Notes: generated from the letters alone by a model not told the origin. 64,000 bases of DNA from an uncultured beta proteobacterium (GCA_963750775.1 CAVVRT010000003.1:155273-219272), one strand, 5' to 3'; shown: positions 53,739 through 60,042, counted from the stretch's first letter. Program-made: numbers and translations.

Positions 53739-53745
53739 TCGTGAC

Positions 53746-53774
53746 AAAAAAAGCCTGCAAATGCAGGCTTTTTT
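53746..53774. terminator. Bidirectional terminator (mlaA/htpX)
   Basis: AAAAAAAGCCTGCA-AA-TGCAGGCTTTTTT. Confidence 0.85.
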
Positions 53775-53793
53775 CATTTGTGACGAGACCAAA

Positions 53794-54672
53794 TTAACGT
53801 GCGGCGCGTAAGGCGGCGATGCGTTCTTCTAAAGGCGGATGGGTCATAAATAGTTTCATCGCGCTGCCGCCTGAAATGCCTGATGCCGCCATGTCTTTTG
53901 GCAAACTGGCTTGCTCGTGATTCATCTTTAAGCGTTCCAACGCGGCGATCATTTTTTCACGTCCTGCTAAGGATGCACCACCTGCATCGGCACGGAATTC
54001 GCGTTGGCGCGAGAACCACATCACGATGATGCTCGCCAGCACACCCAAGACTAATTGCGCCGCCATTTCGGCGACAAATGAGCCGATGCCAGGACCGTCG
54101 CGACCATCGTGTTTGAGCAAAACTCTATCAACAAAAATGCCAAATAATTTCGCGAACATAAACACAAAGGTGTTCACCACGCCTTGTATCAAGGTCAGCG
54201 TAATCATGTCGCCGTTAGCAACGTGGCTGATTTCGTGCGCCAACACCGCTTCGACTTCGTCTTTGCTCATGTTGTCCAACAAGCCGCGACTGACCGCCAC
54301 CAGTGCGTTATTTTTATTCCAGCCCGTGGCAAACGCGTTGACATCGGGCGCTTCGTAAATCGCTACTTCGGGCATACCGATATGCGCTGCCATCGCCTGA
54401 CGTTTAACGGTATCGACCAACCAGCGTTCGGTCGGGTCGGCAGGGTTGGTAATCACTTGCGCATTGACCGAACGCTTCGCCATCCATTTCGACATCAGCA
54501 GCGAAATAATCGAACCCGAAAAGCCCACCACCAGTGACATCACCAGTAGGCTATTAAAGTTAATCGCGCCACTGGCATCGAGCACTTTGTCCACACCGAG
54601 CAAGCGCAGTGTCACGCTAATCACCAGCATCACTGCCAAGTTGGTCACAATAAATAAAAAGATACGTTTCAT
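53794..54672 (-). CDS. htpX: Protease HtpX
   Basis: MKRIFLF..TN, NAFATG, LAHEISH, FSRQREFRAD, THPPLEERI. Confidence 0.97.
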   Translation of the reverse strand: MKRIFLFIVTNLAVMLVISVTLRLLGVDKVLDASGAINFNSLLVMSLVVGFSGSIISLLMSKWMAKRSVNAQVITNPADPTERWLVDTVKRQAMAAHIGMPEVAIYEAPDVNAFATGWNKNNALVAVSRGLLDNMSKDEVEAVLAHEISHVANGDMITLTLIQGVVNTFVFMFAKLFGIFVDRVLLKHDGRDGPGIGSFVAEMAAQLVLGVLASIIVMWFSRQREFRADAGGASLAGREKMIAALERLKMNHEQASLPKDMAASGISGGSAMKLFMTHPPLEERIAALRAAR

Positions 54673-54835: not shown

Positions 54836-55633
54836 ATGCAAACCTTATTGCATCATCCTTATTTCGTCGCCGCCGCCGCACCCTTTTTAGTCGCGCTGCT
54901 TGCCGCCGAATTGTTTTTGCGCATCCGTTTAAGTGGTTTGGCTCTTATCGCGGGCTTCGCTATCACGGTTTTTTTAGTTGCCAATTTTGGCCTGCATCCG
55001 CTCACGCTCACCCAACAAATTATTTGGACAGCACTCGCGGCAAGTTTGCTCGGTGTGCTATTTAGCTTAATCGACTGGCCGTGGCTGAATACCTTGCTAC
55101 CGTTGGCAGGCGTGGTGCTGGCGGTGTGCTTATTGTGGCCACTGGTGCAGCAACATGCGCCACTCAAAATGCTGATTTTGTTGGCGAGTAGCGCGGGCTT
55201 CGTCGGTTTACTGGTGTGGGGGATGGATAACTTAATAGACGTACCGTTGCGCGCCGCCAATGCCGCGACAGCATTGGGCTTGAGCACGGGCATCGCGGTA
55301 TGGAGCAGCACAACTTTATACGGCGAATTTGCTTTGAGCATGGGCTGTGCTGCGGCCGCACACTTGCTGATACAGATGATTAGCAATCAAGCCTTGGCGG
55401 CTGAGCGCGGCTTCACTTTGCCCGCCAGTTTAGTCATCGGCATCATTGCCTGCGTGGCGTTAGTGGCAGGGCATTTGCCTTGGTATTGCTTGCCCTTAAT
55501 GGCAGCGATTCCTCTGTTGGCGTGGGTCATGCCGCTGCCAAAAATGGCGGCACTGCTGCAAAGTTTATTGCTCAGTGTGATGACTGTGCCGCTGGCACTC
55601 GGCGTAGTTTATTTAGCGCACCATCCACTGTAA
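54836..55633 (+). CDS. Hypothetical multi-pass membrane protein
   Basis: 265 aa, many hydrophobic helices, no recognised motif. Confidence 0.7.
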   Translation: MQTLLHHPYFVAAAAPFLVALLAAELFLRIRLSGLALIAGFAITVFLVANFGLHPLTLTQQIIWTALAASLLGVLFSLIDWPWLNTLLPLAGVVLAVCLLWPLVQQHAPLKMLILLASSAGFVGLLVWGMDNLIDVPLRAANAATALGLSTGIAVWSSTTLYGEFALSMGCAAAAHLLIQMISNQALAAERGFTLPASLVIGIIACVALVAGHLPWYCLPLMAAIPLLAWVMPLPKMAALLQSLLLSVMTVPLALGVVYLAHHPL

Positions 55634-55670
55634 GTTTGCAAAAAACACTTTTATCTCTATAGTGCGCGCC

Positions 55671-55973
55671 ATGTTTCGCTCCCTACTCCCTCGCATTCTG
55701 CTCATCACCGCCTTACTGTTTGCGCAGTTAGGCGGCTTGACGCATGGCATTTCACATGCCTTGGCAGAACAGAGTTCGGAGCAATCGCTGCCGCATGACA
55801 AGCATTGCGATTTGTGCGCGGCGTATGCGCAGATCGGTGCGGCGGTCGCGAGCAGCGACATCGTATTTGTCAGCCGCGACACGCATTTCACCCCCGCTAC
55901 GCACTACTTCACCACTCACGCCAGCGACGCTTTTGTCGCCTTTGCCGCGCGCGCTCCGCCTTACTCCGCATAA
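55671..55973 (+). CDS. DUF2946/CruR-like leader peptide (TM segment, His, CxxC, C-terminal RAPP)
   Basis: MFRSLLPRILLITALLFAQLGGLTHGISH...HDKHCDLC...FAARAPPYSA*. Confidence 0.8.
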   Translation: MFRSLLPRILLITALLFAQLGGLTHGISHALAEQSSEQSLPHDKHCDLCAAYAQIGAAVASSDIVFVSRDTHFTPATHYFTTHASDAFVAFAARAPPYSA

Positions 55974-55986
55974 CGCTTATTCAACT

Positions 55987-56023
55987 TCCTCGCGATAATC
56001 ATCGTGAGGATTTTTATTGTTTT
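55987..56023 (+). terminator. Intrinsic terminator/attenuator after the leader peptide
   Basis: TCCTCGCGAT-AATC-ATCGTGAGGA (10 bp, one G-U) followed by TTTTTATTGTTTT. Confidence 0.7.
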
Positions 56024-56038
56024 ATGTGGAGTCAAAAA

Positions 56039-57328
56039 ATGTTCAATCAGAAATTTCTGAGCGTGGCGATTGCCGCGCTATTCGTGCCGTCTATCCATTC
56101 CGCTTATGCCGCCAGCGATGCCGAAGTGCAAACTTTGCGCGACGAAGTAAGGCTACTCGCGGAACGTATCAATCAAACTGATGCTAAAACTGCCGCGCCC
56201 GCCGCGAGTGCTAACGCCTTCAACCCCGCCGTGTCGCTGATTTTGGGCGGCACTTACGCCAAGCTATCGCGCGACCCCGCTATTCCTGCCACGGGTTTTG
56301 CGATGGCCGCCAATCCAGCTCATCCGCAAGGCTTCAATCTGGGCGAATCTGAGCTCGGCATTTCCGCTGACATCGACCCTGAATATCGCGGCTTTGCCAC
56401 CATGGCACTTGCGCCTGCGGGCGGCATTACGGTGGAGAACGCCTTTATCCAAAGCAGCGCGTTGGGCAACGGGCTGAATGTTAAATTCGGTCGCTTCTTT
56501 TCAGGTCTCGGTTATCTCAACGAGCAACATGCGCACGCTTGGGATTTCGTCGATCAACCTTTGGTATATGCCGCGCTGTGGAACAACCAAATTGGCGAAG
56601 ACGGTGTGCAACTTAAATGGCTCGCGCCGACCGAAACTTTTGTCGAACTAGGTGCAGAAGTTGGGCGCGGACGCAGCTTTCCCGCCACCGACACCAACCG
56701 CAATGGTACGGGTGCAACCGCTTTATTTGCGCATGTCGCCGACGATATTGGCGTGGCACATAGTTGGCGCGCGGGCGCATCGCTGTATCAAACGCAACGC
56801 CAAAATGCGCAGAGTTTTAACGTGCCAGATTTGCTCGGCAGCGTCGGCGGGGTGACGAATAGTTTTACGGGCAACAGCCAAACCGCAGGCTTGGATTTCG
56901 TGTGGAAATACGCGCCGAACGGCAACATCCGCGACAAATATATCAAGCTGCAAGGCGAAATTTTCCAGCGTAAAGAAAACGGTGTACTCACTTACAACTT
57001 GCTCACGCCTAGCACTTACAGCAACACGCAAAACGGCTGGTATATGCAAAGCGTGGCGCAATTTATGCCGCACTGGCGCACTGGTTTGCGCTATGACCGC
57101 ATGAACGCTGGCACGGCAAATGTCGGTGCGACGAATCTAGCCAATGTCATCAGCAACTACGCCTACAACCCGACGCGTACCTCTTGGATGTTGGATTACA
57201 GCCCCAGTGAATTCTCGCGTTTGCGCCTGCAAGTCGCCCGCGATCTGACGCGACAAGGGCAGCCTGACAATCAAATTTTTGTGCAATACCTGATGAGCAT
57301 GGGCGCGCACGGCGCGCATAGTTATTAA
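56039..57328 (+). CDS. Outer-membrane beta-barrel (porin-like) with His motifs, putative metal uptake
   Basis: GGAG RBS, signal peptide, short coiled coil, FNPAVSLIL, NEQHAHAWDFVD, YSPSEFSRLRLQ, C-terminal GAHGAHSY. Confidence 0.75.
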   Translation: MFNQKFLSVAIAALFVPSIHSAYAASDAEVQTLRDEVRLLAERINQTDAKTAAPAASANAFNPAVSLILGGTYAKLSRDPAIPATGFAMAANPAHPQGFNLGESELGISADIDPEYRGFATMALAPAGGITVENAFIQSSALGNGLNVKFGRFFSGLGYLNEQHAHAWDFVDQPLVYAALWNNQIGEDGVQLKWLAPTETFVELGAEVGRGRSFPATDTNRNGTGATALFAHVADDIGVAHSWRAGASLYQTQRQNAQSFNVPDLLGSVGGVTNSFTGNSQTAGLDFVWKYAPNGNIRDKYIKLQGEIFQRKENGVLTYNLLTPSTYSNTQNGWYMQSVAQFMPHWRTGLRYDRMNAGTANVGATNLANVISNYAYNPTRTSWMLDYSPSEFSRLRLQVARDLTRQGQPDNQIFVQYLMSMGAHGAHSY

Positions 57329-57346
57329 ATGACCAAAGGAAAAATC

Positions 57347-58243
57347 ATGAAAAAAATTATTTACGCATTCGTTGCCCTGCTGATTAGCAACGCAGCCCAC
57401 GCCGCACTCAATGTGTTCGCGTGCGAACCCGAATGGGCGGCACTCACACAACAACTGGCGGGCGAACAAGCGCACATTTATACCGCCACGACTGCGCTGC
57501 AAGATCCGCATCGCGTCGAAGCGCGTCCGAGTTTGATTGCTCAAGCGCGTCGTGCCAATTTGGTGGTTTGCACAGGCGCAGAACTAGAAATGGCGTGGCT
57601 GCCTGTGGTGCTGAGAGAGTCAGGCAACACTGCTGTGGCGGCGGGCAGCTTGGGGAATTTTGAAGCAGCGCAATTTGTAAAAATGTTGGAAGTGCCGATG
57701 CGTTTGAATCGTGCCGATGGCGATGTTCATGCCGCTGGCAACCCACATATTCAAACCGATGCGCGTAATTTTTTGCCCATTGCCGAGGCGTTAAGCAAAC
57801 GTTTGATTCAGCTGGATGCCGCCAATACCGCGCAATACCAGCAACGCCTCGCCAGCTTCAATCAGCAATGGCGCGCCGCGATGACGCGTTGGGAAAAACA
57901 AGCCGCGCCGCTCAAAGGTTTGCCCGTCCTAGTGCAGCATCGAGGCTTTCCGTATTTGAACAACTGGCTGGGTTTGCAACAAGTCAGCACGCTAGAGCCT
58001 AAGCCTGGTATGGAACCCAGCGCGTCGCACTTGGCACAAGTGGTCAACGAACTGCAAACCCACCCCGCGAAAATCGTCATCCGCGCCGCTTATCAAGACG
58101 CGCGCCCGTCGGAGTGGATTGCGCAACGCGCCAAAATAGCGGCGGTGATGCTGCCTTACACAGTAGGCGGCACGCTGCAAGCGACGGATTTATACACGCT
58201 GTTTGATGACACGATTGCGAGGTTGTTGGCGGGGCTGCACTAG
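57347..58243 (+). CDS. Metal ABC transporter substrate-binding protein (ZnuA/TroA-like)
   Basis: QDPHRVEARPS, DVHAAGNPHI, VQH.GF, LEPKPG.EPS. Confidence 0.9.
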   Translation: MKKIIYAFVALLISNAAHAALNVFACEPEWAALTQQLAGEQAHIYTATTALQDPHRVEARPSLIAQARRANLVVCTGAELEMAWLPVVLRESGNTAVAAGSLGNFEAAQFVKMLEVPMRLNRADGDVHAAGNPHIQTDARNFLPIAEALSKRLIQLDAANTAQYQQRLASFNQQWRAAMTRWEKQAAPLKGLPVLVQHRGFPYLNNWLGLQQVSTLEPKPGMEPSASHLAQVVNELQTHPAKIVIRAAYQDARPSEWIAQRAKIAAVMLPYTVGGTLQATDLYTLFDDTIARLLAGLH

Positions 58244-58246
58244 CTT

Positions 58247-58367
58247 GTCATTCCCGTGAAAACGGGAATCCAGATAATTCAATGCGCTCCGCGCAGCGGA
58301 ACAACCACGGCAAATTTTACGCTGCGCGTAACGTTTTTTGCTGGATTCCCGCCTACGCGGGAACGAC
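58247..58367. repeat. CGTC/ATTCCC-type REP doublet
   Basis: GTCATTCCCGTGAAAACGGGAATCCAG ... CTGGATTCCCGCCTACGCGGGAACGAC with inner GCGCAGCG/CGCTGCGC. Confidence 0.85.
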
Positions 58368-58386
58368 GGACTCACCAAGGATATTT

Positions 58387-59133
58387 ATGAACGCCATCGA
58401 ACTTTCCATCCTGATTCCTGCTTTTATCGCGGGGCTGTTGGTGCTTGCTACGCACATTCCGCTGGGCATCAAAGTGTTGCAGCGCGGAGTCATTTTTGCT
58501 GACCTTGCAGTGGCGCAAATCGCGGGCTTAGGCATCGTTATCGCGGGACTATTTGAACTCACTGACCAGCCTGTTTTAGTGCAGCTTATCGCCGCCTTAA
58601 GTGCCTTATGCGGTGCGGCTTTACTGACGTTTATCGAAGCGCGCTTTAACGACGTGAAAGAGGCGTGTATCGGGCTGACTTTTGTGTTGGCGGCAACGGC
58701 GGGAGTTTTATTGATGAGCCGCGATGTGCATGCGGGCGAGCATCTCAAAGATTTATTGGTCGGACAAATTTTATGGGTGAGCAGCCCGCAACTAATGTAC
58801 ACCGTCGCCTTGAGTAGCTTGCTGCTGTTGGCTTTGCGCTACTTGCCCGACCGTTTTCAGCAACGCAGTTTCTACGCTTTATTTGCCTTAGCTGTCACCG
58901 CTTCGGTGCAATTAGTCGGCGTGTATTTAGTTTTCGCCAGCCTGATTGTGCCCGCCCTCGCGACCTATCGCCTCACCCGTCACCGCCTGTTTTTCGCGGG
59001 CATGGTGGGTATCACAGGCTACGCGGCAGGACTGCTGCTATCGGCTAGCTTCGACTTACCCGCAGGTGCGGCGATTGTGTGGACGATGGCAACAGTAGGC
59101 GGCGTGATTTTGATTACAATGCGCGCCCTTTAG
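58387..59133 (+). CDS. Metal ABC transporter permease (ABC-3/ZnuB-like)
   Basis: LATHIPLG..VL.RG.IF.DLAVAQIAGLG, G.ILW, GVYLVFASLIVPA. Confidence 0.85.
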   Translation: MNAIELSILIPAFIAGLLVLATHIPLGIKVLQRGVIFADLAVAQIAGLGIVIAGLFELTDQPVLVQLIAALSALCGAALLTFIEARFNDVKEACIGLTFVLAATAGVLLMSRDVHAGEHLKDLLVGQILWVSSPQLMYTVALSSLLLLALRYLPDRFQQRSFYALFALAVTASVQLVGVYLVFASLIVPALATYRLTRHRLFFAGMVGITGYAAGLLLSASFDLPAGAAIVWTMATVGGVILITMRAL

Positions 59134-59235: not shown

Positions 59236-60042
59236 ATGACCGACCGTTACGCCGTTATCGGCAACCCCATCAATCACAGCAAATCGCCGCTGATACACCA
59301 AATGTTTGCCGCACAAACAGGCGAAGATATTCGCTATGAAAAAATCGAAGCTCCGCTGGACGGCTTCGCCGCGACCGTGCAACGCTTGATTGATGAGGGC
59401 TACAAGGGCTGCAACGTGACGGTGCCGTTTAAGTTTGCGGCGTTTGAATTAGCCACTGAAAAACACCCGCGCGCCGCCAGTGCGCTGGCTGCCAACACGC
59501 TGCTTTTTACCCCAGCAAAAGTGACCGCAGACAACACCGACGGGGCAGGCTTAGTGCGCGACATTGAACAAAATTTGAACGTGAGTTTGCGCGGTAAACG
59601 CGTGTTGCTGATGGGTGCAGGCGGCGCGGCGTATGGCGTGGCGTTGCCTTTGCTCATCACTGGCTGCGCATTAAGCGTAGTGAATCGCACTGTCGCAAAA
59701 GCGCAACAACTCGCCGCGAATTTCGCGCCATACGGCCACCTCAAAGCCTATGCGTATGAAGATTTAACCGGCTTGCAATTCGATGTCGTTATCAACGCCA
59801 CGTCTAGCGGTTTAAGCGATGAGCTCGCCCCGCTCCCCGCCAGCATTTTCGCCCAACACGCACTCGCCTACGACATGATGTACGGACGTGAAACGCTGTT
59901 TATGCAGTTCGCTAAACAGCATGGCGCACAAGTCGCGGATGGCTTGGGCATGTTGGTCGAACAAGCGGCGGAAGCGTTCTTCATCTGGCGCGAGTTACGA
60001 CCCGATACCGCGCCTGTCATCGCGGCGTTGCGCGCGCTATGA
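59236..60042 (+). CDS. aroE: Shikimate dehydrogenase
   Basis: GNPI.HSKSP, G.NVTVPFK, DNTDG.G, GAGGAA, INATS, DGLGMLVEQAA. Confidence 0.97.
   Translation: MTDRYAVIGNPINHSKSPLIHQMFAAQTGEDIRYEKIEAPLDGFAATVQRLIDEGYKGCNVTVPFKFAAFELATEKHPRAASALAANTLLFTPAKVTADNTDGAGLVRDIEQNLNVSLRGKRVLLMGAGGAAYGVALPLLITGCALSVVNRTVAKAQQLAANFAPYGHLKAYAYEDLTGLQFDVVINATSSGLSDELAPLPASIFAQHALAYDMMYGRETLFMQFAKQHGAQVADGLGMLVEQAAEAFFIWRELRPDTAPVIAALRAL

Follow-up and report, generated by a model that had tools for sequence, protein, structure and literature searches.

A candidate zinc-uptake operon of Gallionella that combines a porin-like barrel and a ZnuA-like binding protein with an ABC-3 permease lacking the ATPase-docking helix

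ABC importers are textbook ATP-driven machines, and their type-II membrane domains are, to our knowledge, otherwise found only with ATPases. How zinc passes the outer membrane is poorly understood. Among the described importers, E. coli ZnuABC (9oko) and S. pneumoniae PsaBCA (7kyp) share with the Gallionella operon reported here a cluster A-I three-His binding protein and the permease membrane fold, whereas the Gallionella operon has no ATPase, has the coupling helix alpha2 deleted and has a dedicated porin added. In ZnuB, helix alpha2 comprises residues 154-162 and docks ZnuC (PMC12236471).

The closest known relative is the Vibrio cluster omr-znuA2-znuB2 (V. parahaemolyticus VP_RS21430-21420, with ZnuA2 being Vpa1307), which has the same gene order. 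In a zur mutant of V. parahaemolyticus the cluster is de-repressed by a factor of 283-1033, and Vibrio species with this trio of genes also carry canonical ZnuABC (PMC9817125); ZnuA2 aids growth under zinc limitation (PMC3794297). Both papers label the barrel a TonB-dependent receptor and, in the portions consulted, pass over the missing ATPase without comment. The Vibrio cluster is Zur-controlled and has no leader, whereas the Gallionella operon begins with a CruR-type leader and has neither a Zur box nor a Fur-family gene in its genome.

A parallel for this leader is the CruR (Bp2923)-BfrG operon of Bordetella pertussis, whose first ORF is likewise of the DUF2946 type, with an export signal, a CXXC motif and a C-terminal RAPP. 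The Bordetella operon serves metal acquisition, as the Gallionella operon probably does, and both lack a Fur box. Downstream, the Bordetella operon encodes proteins for copper, namely a TonB-dependent transporter and a PepSY_TM protein, in contrast to the porin, ZnuA-like protein and ABC-3 permease of Gallionella; termination is Rho-dependent in Bordetella, whereas an intrinsic-terminator-like hairpin follows the Gallionella leader.

Operon layout and related loci

The Gallionella operon consists of four genes at positions 55671-59133 of the window (the whole 64,000-nucleotide stretch of DNA that was analysed), which encode a CruR/DUF2946-type leader, a 429-aa porin-like barrel, a ZnuA-like binding protein and an ABC-3 permease, with no ATPase gene among them. 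The features are:

55635..55663, plus strand: candidate sigma-70-like promoter, TTTGCA-17-TATAGT, 8 nt 5' of the leader ORF (consensus scan only)
55671..55973, plus strand: leader ORF of the CruR/DUF2946 type, 100 aa (PF11162, 28.2 bits)
55987..56020, plus strand: 10-bp hairpin followed by a T-run in the leader-barrel gap, a candidate attenuator or terminator
56039..57328, plus strand: outer-membrane protein, 429 aa, 16-strand porin-like barrel (AF2, Foldseek)
57329..58243, plus strand: periplasmic cluster A-I (ZnuA-like) metal-binding protein, 304 aa (PF01297, E 1e-39)
58248..58368, no strand assigned: two small REP-like hairpins (ATTCCCG...CGGGAAT) in the binding-protein/permease gap, seen in the sequence
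58387..59133, plus strand: ABC-3-fold permease, 248 aa, without the cytoplasmic coupling helix (PF00950, 66.9 bits)

The small ORF at 55671-55973, which a sequence-only reading of this DNA had treated as a separate leader, is instead the operon's opening gene, matching PF11162 (DUF2946), and a terminator-like site at 55987-56010 plus TTTTTATTGT lies between it and the barrel gene. The ZnuA-like protein and ZnuB-like permease called in that reading are borne out by the PF01297 and PF00950 matches. The longest permease ORF runs from 58282, and homologues beginning with MNAIEL place its start at 58387. In related loci the binding-protein and permease genes mostly overlap, whereas in Gallionella the REP-like hairpins are inserted between them; their palindrome has a single occurrence in the window.

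The operon is flanked by htpX (53794-54672, minus strand) and aroE (59236-60042). No ABC ATPase gene was found between these two genes, as had been claimed, and the closest matches to PF00005 within the window lie near 19.9 kb, near 27.0 kb (pstB) and near 38.1 kb. A 265-aa membrane protein at 54836-55633 was considered as a member of the module and rejected, as it could be assigned to no family and related loci lack a counterpart. The Rfam search of 53-61 kb gave nothing relevant.

The order barrel, binding protein, permease was found in 14 relatives, in 80 loci of Beta- and Gammaproteobacteria, and in 8 more distant Pseudomonadota and in Vibrio campbellii, in no case with an adjacent ATPase. 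The arrangement recurs in about 100 loci and is thus no product of chance, and orthologous loci do not normally include an ATPase gene. The nearest ATPases are sporadic, lying at 1.2 kb in one locus (L115) and at 1.6 kb on the opposite strand in another (L125). The canonical ABC-3 permeases sampled had an adjacent ATPase in 13 of 13 cases and kept the coupling helix in all three that were aligned. The trio and a canonical ABC-3 system occur together in 3 of 61 genomes, a weak anticorrelation (Fisher p 0.04) among kin that are not independent. Five database proteins have fused ZnuA and ABC-3 domains, none of them with ABC_tran. In some genomes (e.g. G077, 553 aa) a long open frame spans both the binding-protein gene and the permease gene; such frames were rejected as fusions, since the two genes are in different frames.

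The permease and the search for an ATPase

The PF00950 match of the permease is split into two stretches. While phmmer with the single permease sequence retrieved nothing from the PDB sequences, the family profile reached E. coli ZnuB (9oko) with an E-value of 8e-12, leaving a 16-residue gap that corresponds to ZnuB 148-163. Across the permease family the missing stretch is 16-19 residues long and covers the ZnuB coupling helix; the gap recurs in Vibrio and other trio permeases, and the two-stretch match in the trio-type permeases of 22 of the 61 genomes of the order. In the AF2 model (pLDDT 91), TM5 (133-152) is joined to TM6 (155-177) by a 2-residue turn and there is no cytosolic helix, and the best fold match is PsaC (TM-score 0.73-0.76), followed by BtuC. 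These data indicate that the permease keeps the membrane fold of type-II ABC importers and no longer has their ATPase-docking helix. Compared with a canonical cluster A-I importer, the binding protein and the ABC-3 fold are present, and the coupling helix and a cognate ATPase are absent.

The permease family has 45 invariant columns, with polar intramembrane residues among them. In the cavity, ZnuB has D36, H40 and H91 where the Gallionella permease has L40, Q44 and V100; in the latter, an invariant D39 lies one position before L40, the residue aligned with ZnuB D36. Residues H23, H115 and E118 are invariant specifically in this clade.

The window's own genome is 100% complete and contains one ABC-3 permease and one ZnuA. 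No ZnuC-like ATPase was found in it (best score 100 bits against a cut-off of 306), nor an ortholog of the ATPase of locus L192 (see below). Its ten stand-alone ABC ATPases are LptB, FtsE, PstB, LolD, MlaF, CcmA and exporter types, and a multi-TM gene lies beside seven of the ten, in a partner search that covered all but LptB. The ABC-2-type ATPase at C1:4478, for which no partner was identified, is located in an atypical high-GC stretch. A NodI-like gene at C6:113409 was considered as an orphan ATPase, as the gene after it encodes a P-loop NTPase instead of a permease, but a NodJ-like ABC-2 permease is found about 3 kb downstream. No unpartnered importer-type ATPase was found in the genome.

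These results bear on the possibility that the trio is after all an ordinary ABC importer, sharing with another ABC system an ATPase whose gene lies elsewhere. Such an arrangement would agree with the company that type-II membrane domains otherwise keep. Moreover, trio-bearing Vibrio species possess znuABC (PMC9817125). We nevertheless regard a shared ATPase as quite unlikely, because the docking element for any ABC ATPase is deleted across the clade, and because the complete genome lacks a ZnuC-like ATPase or a second ABC-3 system, its ATPases being of LPS, lipoprotein, phosphate, Mla, Ccm, FtsE and exporter types that mostly adjoin their partners. Furthermore, loci that do pair this barrel and binding protein with an ATPase have a different permease, which keeps the helix. 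Two such loci are L191 and L192, where the barrel scores 559 and 628 bits and the binding protein 412 and 452 bits for the trio's subfamily, and where an ATPase occurs with a different permease that retains the coupling-helix segment; in a quick tree, the binding proteins of both loci fall within the trio clade.

The absence of a visible energy source would also suit a permease energised by an unrecognised non-ABC partner, or a binding protein and permease that serve as a sensor or metallochaperone station rather than an importer. In line with this, the barrel gene sometimes occurs without a binding protein or permease, in one locus together with the leader (L136) and in the window's own genome as a lone paralog. 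However, no further conserved gene accompanies the trio, the ten downstream neighbour genes examined in diverse loci being all unrelated; the permease keeps its transport fold and invariant columns; and the Vibrio homologue contributes to zinc-limited growth (PMC3794297). We therefore consider both variants very improbable.

The sequence-only reading had left the choice between an ATPase borrowed in trans and transport independent of an ATPase. The loss of the helix, the genome without a matching ATPase and the orthologous loci favour the second option at the expense of the first, and ATP-free import is probable because the permease has lost the helix and the genome holds no matching ATPase. 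Three points weigh against ATP-independence: the canonical ZnuC of Vibrio could be usable by the trio, a high-affinity binding protein would have to release its metal without ATP-driven motion, and the lack of a recognisable partner ATPase is a negative finding. No description of an ATPase-independent ABC-3 or ZnuB-type permease was found in the literature searched. TRAP and TTT systems resemble the trio in concept only, with a periplasmic binding protein feeding an ATP-free membrane carrier; they are not homologous to it, and the Gallionella carrier derives from the membrane domain of a type-II ABC importer.

The barrel and its predicted docking to the binding protein

The barrel protein has a signal peptide (...SAYA/AS) and a periplasmic helix at residues 27-50, and its AF2 model (pLDDT 84) contains 16 strands and no plug. 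It has no Pfam or NCBIfam match. The best Foldseek matches are the 16-strand porins OmpT, VhChiP, OprP/OprO and DcaP, with a probability of 1.0 and a TMq of only 0.5-0.57, so that the protein is a 16-strand porin by modelled fold, with no sequence-family membership. The earlier remark that it is too short for a plugged TonB receptor agrees with this model. A TonB-dependent receptor, with 22 strands, a plug and a TonB box, was rejected because the protein has only 429 aa and its model shows 16 strands without a plug, and searches with the TonB_dep_Rec and Plug families of Pfam gave no matches. The label of TonB-dependent receptor for the Vibrio outer-membrane protein is likewise unsupported by the modelled fold of the barrel family. 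This family comprises 5203 representative clusters at E<=1e-3. In databases, 'TonB-dependent receptor' is the label of 'omr' and of one Atlas cluster.

Both His motifs pointed out previously are present. H164-A-H166 is modelled on the long loop that follows strand 5, where porins have their constriction loop L3, and the C-terminal sequence is G-A-H-G-A-H-S-Y, in which the tail G422-x-H424-G-A-H427 is invariant. OprP/OprO of Pseudomonas aeruginosa, DcaP and VhChiP have 16 strands, as the Gallionella barrel is predicted to have; OprP/OprO-type specific porins also carry their selectivity residues on the long post-strand-5 loop, and DcaP shares the N-terminal periplasmic helix. Expression is tied to nutrient limitation in OprP/OprO-type porins and probably in the Gallionella barrel. 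However, the lining is of Arg/Lys in OprP/OprO-type porins and apparently of His in Gallionella, no sequence family is shared, and, unlike these porins, the Gallionella barrel has invariant periplasmic turns and an HGAH tail with a predicted binding-protein contact. The Vibrio barrel differs from that of Gallionella in lacking the N-terminal helix and having an extra His/Asp-rich loop.

Alignment of the binding protein to Synechocystis ZnuA places H61, H140 and H204 at the ligand positions of the latter, showing that the three-His site is kept; D132, H134, E33 and E35 are further invariants. The invariant Cys32 was considered as a Cu(I) ligand and set aside. C32 and C81 may instead form a disulfide, which seems likelier because Cys81 is also invariant and both residues follow hydrophobic runs in the N-terminal lobe.

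A model of the complex between barrel residues 58-429 and binding-protein residues 26-304 gave confident docking, with a score of 0.84 against 0.00 for the best of 3 controls. The mark for this score is reached by 58 of 80 solved complexes and by 2 of 110 mismatched pairs, counts that are only roughly valid here because the alignments used were our own. At least 90% of contacts agree between runs, and the partner pLDDT is at least 89. On the barrel side, the modelled interface comprises all seven periplasmic turns and tail residues 424-429, and on the binding-protein side residues 55-75, including H61; conserved columns are over-represented about 2-fold among its positions (p about 0.03 each). 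The metal cleft of the binding protein is thus predicted to dock on the periplasmic turns and the invariant HGAH tail of the barrel. The sequence-only reading had suggested that the His-rich C-terminus folds into the barrel, whereas the models put it at the periplasmic mouth, in contact with the binding protein.

The metal, the leader and the proposed mechanism

The barrel, binding protein and permease share 28%, 41% and 36% identity with those of V. campbellii (L138; E 2e-48, 5e-82 and 2e-41). The Vibrio and Gallionella clusters have in common the motifs CEPEW, GD[IV]HAxGNPH and the barrel C-terminal GAHGAH, as well as the coupling-helix gap and the absence of an ATPase gene. Two Zur-box-like palindromes with a shorter core lie upstream of the V. 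campbellii barrel gene, and no full E. coli-type Zur box was found in Vibrio at 3 mismatches. As the Vibrio cluster is the closest relative and aids zinc-limited growth, zinc is, by analogy, the likely substrate.

Hallmarks of CruR are a PF11162 match, CXXC and RAPP motifs about 45 residues apart, RAPP three residues from the stop, and a first position in the operon (PMC9426467). The Gallionella leader shows all of these: it has a hydrophobic N-terminus, H25 and H29, C46-x-x-C49 and R94-A-P-P97, with 44 residues from C46-C49 to R94-P97 followed by 3 residues and the stop, and it scores 28.2 bits against the PF11162 cut-off of 23.7. Residues H25, H29, C46, C49 and R94 are invariant in 39 homologues, the two His being an addition of this subfamily to the Bordetella CruR pattern. 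Of 62 related loci, 54 have an ORF of the form CxxC...R[AGS]PP...stop upstream of the barrel gene. Leader, barrel, binding protein and permease genes make up a conserved unit.

The DUF2946 leader family has been tied experimentally to copper, not zinc (PMC9426467). It is therefore conceivable that the architecture and ATP-independence are as proposed while the Gallionella substrate is copper, with the leader switching the operon off by copper. The leader's family score, the CXXC/RAPP spacing and C-terminal position as in the copper control of B. pertussis, the copper-related operons that CruR genes head and the frequent leader upstream of the barrel gene would all fit this explanation, and the His-rich motifs also suit Cu(II). 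On the other hand, the binding site is of the three-His ZnuA type and its residues match Vibrio ZnuA2, which is Zur-controlled and active in zinc limitation (PMC9817125, PMC3794297); H25, H29 and the two Cys of the leader form a 2His-2Cys set that would suit zinc; and no copper chaperone or cuproenzyme genes were found among the neighbours scanned. Copper is thus rather unlikely, and zinc remains our preferred substrate.

No Zur-box-like palindrome was found in the 64-kb window, in agreement with the earlier statement that no Zur/Fur box is present, and no Fur-family gene was found in the window's own genome. The latter absence strengthens the suggestion, drawn from sequence, that the leader may control the operon.

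On balance, we favour a leader-controlled, high-affinity uptake operon by which a metal, most likely zinc, crosses both membranes without an ABC ATPase. The metal would pass the His-lined barrel pore and be handed over at its periplasmic mouth, where the cleft of the binding protein would lie against the seven barrel turns and the HGAH tail. The binding protein would then ferry the metal to a permease dimer, which would act as a binding-protein-gated facilitator or an ion-coupled carrier, driven not by ATP but by the membrane potential together with a very low level of free metal in the cytoplasm. Expression would be set by ribosome arrest on the CruR-type leader, in place of the Zur control of the Vibrio homologue. 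More tentatively, we propose that the permease clade represents a new transporter class, in which a type-II importer domain gave up ATPase and coupling helix to become an ATP-independent, binding-protein-dependent carrier, with a His-lined docking porin that completes a relay from the outer to the inner membrane and with control, in many lineages, by an arrest peptide that perhaps senses zinc instead of copper.

A large natural clade of ABC importer membrane domains thus appears to work with a binding protein and without an ATPase. If true, TRAP and TTT would be joined by a third way of achieving binding-protein-dependent secondary transport, and the trio would serve as a natural experiment that reveals the contribution of the ATPase. 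For annotation, 'Zinc-regulated TonB-dependent receptor' would become a porin, and 'Metal ABC transporter permease' an ATPase-less permease. The complex model leads us to propose a direct handover of metal from a porin to a binding protein, and the leader points to a recruitment of CruR-type leaders by zinc-type systems of bacteria without Fur/Zur, such as the Gallionella studied here. The Vibrio homologue makes the proposal testable in a tractable organism.

Locus anatomy and conservation of the trio

The window spans C3:155273-219272 of genome G000, which measures 2.16 Mb in 6 contigs and is 100% complete; close homologues carry the names Gallionella or Gallionellaceae. Between htpX and aroE lie a barrel gene, a ZnuA-like binding-protein gene and an ABC-3 permease gene, headed by a leader ORF of the DUF2946/CruR type:

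53794-54672, minus strand: htpX
54836-55633, plus strand: 265-aa multi-TM membrane protein without a Pfam or NCBIfam family
55671-55973, plus strand: 100-aa leader ORF, DUF2946 (28.2 bits vs a cut-off of 23.7)
56039-57328, plus strand: barrel gene, 429-aa exported protein without a Pfam or NCBIfam family
57329-58243, plus strand: ZnuA-family binding protein (E 1e-39)
58387-59133, plus strand: ABC-3 permease (66.9 bits, match split into two stretches)
59236-60042: aroE, right-hand boundary of the stretch

An ATPase-domain search found no ABC ATPase gene from htpX to aroE, as the sequence-only reading had claimed, and the barrel motifs it had reported were also borne out, namely HAH (H164-A-H166) and a C-terminal GAHGAH (the protein ends in G-A-H-G-A-H-S-Y). 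Across 41 homologues, H164, H166, G422, H424, G425 and H427 never vary, and A426 hardly does.

Two REP-like hairpins (ATTCCCG...CGGGAAT; 58248-58368) part the binding-protein gene from the permease gene and give the permease ORF a spurious 35-codon N-terminal extension; unlike in the window, these genes overlap in most relatives. Related loci do not conserve the 265-aa membrane protein that lies between htpX and the leader; those of related Gallionellaceae have no equivalent at the matching site. Weak Rfam matches (Thr_leader, ctRNA; E 0.19-0.74) just past the htpX stop, at 53744-53793, most likely reflect just the htpX terminator hairpin.

The order barrel, binding protein, permease was found in 14/14 loci of several families, which were located with the permease query and fetched with ±9 kb each. 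A scan in which each species was represented by a single genome confirmed 550 relatives, and the order is strictly retained in the best 80 of the 550, which were examined with ±10 kb and include Gallionellaceae, Methylotenera, Limnobacter, Rhodoferax, Ramlibacter, Oxalobacteraceae, Usitatibacter, Thiotrichaceae, Woeseiaceae, Rhodanobacteraceae, Sulfuricaulis and Thiohalobacter. With an HMM made from ten ATPases of the window's genome, no ABC ATPase adjoining the trio was detected in these 80 loci, and eight more distant Pseudomonadota loci, reached via the barrel profile, show the same order without an adjacent ATPase. The cross-genome comparison proposed in the sequence-only reading found no ATPase adjacent to the trio in the 14, 80 and 8 loci. 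A leader ORF of the form CxxC...R[AGS]PP...stop lies upstream of the barrel gene in 54 of the 62 loci with sufficient upstream sequence, and the genes downstream of the trio are unrelated to it. Five database proteins combine ZnuA and ABC-3 domains in a single chain, none of them with ABC_tran.

The barrel family is large, with 5203 representative clusters at a threshold of E<=1e-3, of which 1089 also pass E<=1e-30. In one genome (G027:C34, locus L029, 5220-10826), the first two genes are duplicated, giving a tandem of barrel, binding protein, barrel, binding protein and permease. The window's genome (G000) also has a lone 423-aa barrel-family paralog (70 bits; G000:C2:309866-311137, minus strand; locus L177, 6866-8137), whose surroundings contain neither a binding-protein nor a permease gene. 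On a metagenome contig (L136, 354-1937), a 101-aa small ORF and a barrel-family gene adjoin a TonB_C gene without a binding protein or permease, suggesting that the barrel is usable on its own.

Coupling helix and ATPases

The permease-family profile matches E. coli ZnuB (PDB 9oko; E 8e-12) with a 16-residue gap spanning ZnuB 148-163. The coupling helix of ZnuB, alpha2 (residues 154-162), is the main contact to the ATPase ZnuC (PMC12236471). In the AF2 model of the permease (pLDDT 91), TM5 (133-152) meets TM6 (155-177) via a two-residue turn; the structures closest to it in fold are PsaC (TM-score 0.73-0.76) and domains of the BtuC type. The search for a coupling helix, which the sequence-only reading had suggested, thus ended at a deleted segment, and both the profile alignment and the predicted structure show a permease without the ATPase docking element. 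Across 61 genomes of the order, canonical ABC-3 permeases give a single PF00950 match (positions 2-257, 150-278 bits), and trio-type permeases, present in 22 of these genomes, a match split in two (about 3-148 and 168-255).

In the same order, 13 canonical ABC-3 permeases were sampled, and an ABC ATPase gene adjoins each of them. In two comparison loci, L191 and L192, the barrel (559 and 628 bits) and the binding protein (412 and 452 bits) belong to the family and subfamily of the trio, and the genes that follow encode a short ABC ATPase (PF00005, 60-65 bits) and an ABC-3 permease of another kind, which gives a single-stretch profile match and keeps an EAA-like segment. Together with the canonical controls, these loci indicate that ATPase gene and coupling helix occur together. 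A quick maximum-likelihood tree places the trio binding proteins in a single clade, separate from canonical ZnuA (support 94), and the ATPase-linked proteins of L191 and L192 nest within this clade (support 97), suggesting a cassette swap. The barrel and binding protein of the trio go with either inner-membrane arrangement.

Another type of pair without an ATPase was observed at L134 (G028:C4; 7262-10730, minus strand), where an acetamidase/formamidase-family gene, ZnuA and a 415-aa ABC-3 permease have no adjacent ATPase. This permease has a partly shortened coupling-helix segment (about 8 residues) and a C-terminal extension of roughly 150 aa.

In the window's genome, an ABC-3 permease, a ZnuA, a DUF2946 protein and a ZIP transporter are each encoded once. 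The best hit of a ZnuC-model search was an ABC-F protein (100 bits vs a cut-off of 306), and no ortholog of the L192 ATPase was found there, the best match being an ABC-F protein with 34% identity. There are ten stand-alone ATPases, LptB, NodI-like, FtsE, PstB, YbbA-like, LolD, two ABC-2 types, MlaF and CcmA; among the nine other than LptB, which were checked for partners, a multi-TM gene adjoins seven, the NodI-like ATPase has a NodJ-like permease about 3 kb downstream, and no partner was found for one ABC-2-type ATPase in an atypical high-GC stretch. An orphan ZnuC-like ATPase elsewhere, named by the sequence-only reading as evidence that would count against it, was not found in the complete genome, which, judged by gene content, appears to hold no ATPase for the permease to borrow.

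G000:C1:1-8200, which contains an ABC-2-type ATPase, shows ORFs in almost every frame, a pattern of very G+C-rich DNA that the window, at roughly 53% G+C, does not share; this DNA may be foreign or mis-binned. At G000:C6:113409-118099, the NodI-like ABC ATPase and the NodJ-like ABC-2 permease are separated by a gene for a 581-aa P-loop NTPase (weak KAP/AAA_22 matches), which appears to have been inserted into an exporter operon.

Substrate and regulation

The trio is homologous to a Vibrio system linked to zinc limitation. According to PMC9817125, an omr-znuA2-znuB2 cluster is present in V. parahaemolyticus, V. vulnificus and V. campbellii and is de-repressed 283-1033-fold in a zur mutant; PMC3794297 reports that zinc limitation induces ZnuA2 (Vpa1307), which helps growth under that limitation. 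The V. campbellii copy is located on a 2.06-Mb replicon, and its proteins are 28% (barrel, E 2e-48), 41% (binding protein, E 5e-82) and 36% (permease, E 2e-41) identical to those of the window. Its barrel ends in GAHGAHAF, its binding protein has CEPEW, QDPH and GDIHAHGNPH, and its permease shows the same helix gap and split Pfam match; the genes 3' of the trio are convergent, so that an ATPase is absent there.

Two Zur-box-like palindromes lie immediately upstream of the V. campbellii barrel gene, whereas none was found in the 64-kb window, in agreement with the sequence-only reading. The V. campbellii locus lacks the leader ORF. No Fur-family (PF01475) gene was detected in the complete Gallionellaceae genome, the same search being positive in 13/14 control genomes. 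The lack of both Fur and Zur is unusual in an iron-oxidiser.

Since the binding-site residues are common to the zinc-linked Vibrio protein, zinc is most likely the substrate. Copper is a real alternative, as the DUF2946 leader family was shown by experiment to be a copper sensor (PMC9426467), but the metal-binding residues match the zinc-linked protein. The window-type leader subfamily has two additional invariant histidines (H25, H29) alongside C46 and C49, a set that would suit zinc.

The barrel and a proposed metal route

The AF2 model of the barrel (pLDDT 84) has a periplasmic helix at 27-50 and 16 strands, with the HAH motif on the long loop that follows strand 5, where 16-strand porins have their constriction loop L3. 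The best Foldseek matches are OmpT, VhChiP, OprP/OprO and DcaP. The label of TonB-dependent receptor, used in databases and the Vibrio papers, was rejected on the 16-strand model and these porin matches.

Complex prediction for barrel 58-429 and binding protein 26-304 gave 0.84, vs 0.00 for the best of three controls, with at least 90% contact agreement between runs and partner pLDDT of at least 89. The 0.84 mark was reached by 58/80 solved complexes and 2/110 mismatched pairs, counts that are only rough because our own alignments were used. No solved complex between a porin and a binding protein, which the model might have memorised, is known to us. The predicted interface comprises every short periplasmic turn and tail residues 424-429 of the barrel, and residues 55-75 (with ligand H61), 88-101, 128 and 255-257 of the binding protein, at the mouth of the metal cleft; conserved positions are about twice as frequent there as elsewhere (p about 0.03 per protein). 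These predictions support binding of the barrel to the binding protein. The earlier idea that the His-rich C-terminus folds into the barrel as a metal relay is not borne out by the models, which place the tail at the barrel's periplasmic mouth, in contact with the binding protein.

The anatomy of the locus, its conservation, the loss of helix and ATPase and the homology with a zinc-limitation system are shown by the data; beyond these, we propose that metal would pass the outer membrane via the His-lined pore, be picked up by the binding protein at its periplasmic mouth and be handed to a permease dimer, through which the cation would move down its electrochemical gradient or coupled to ions. 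The clade-specific invariant permease residues H23, D39, Q44, E92, H115, E118, Q127, Q175 and D223 are candidates for the metal path. No description of an ATPase-independent ABC-3 permease was found in a literature search. The present analysis newly contributes the coupling-helix deletion, the co-variation of helix and ATPase (with the swapped cassette as one case), an inventory of the ATPases in a complete genome, a checked link between the Gallionella trio and the Vibrio system, and a model for docking between barrel and binding protein.
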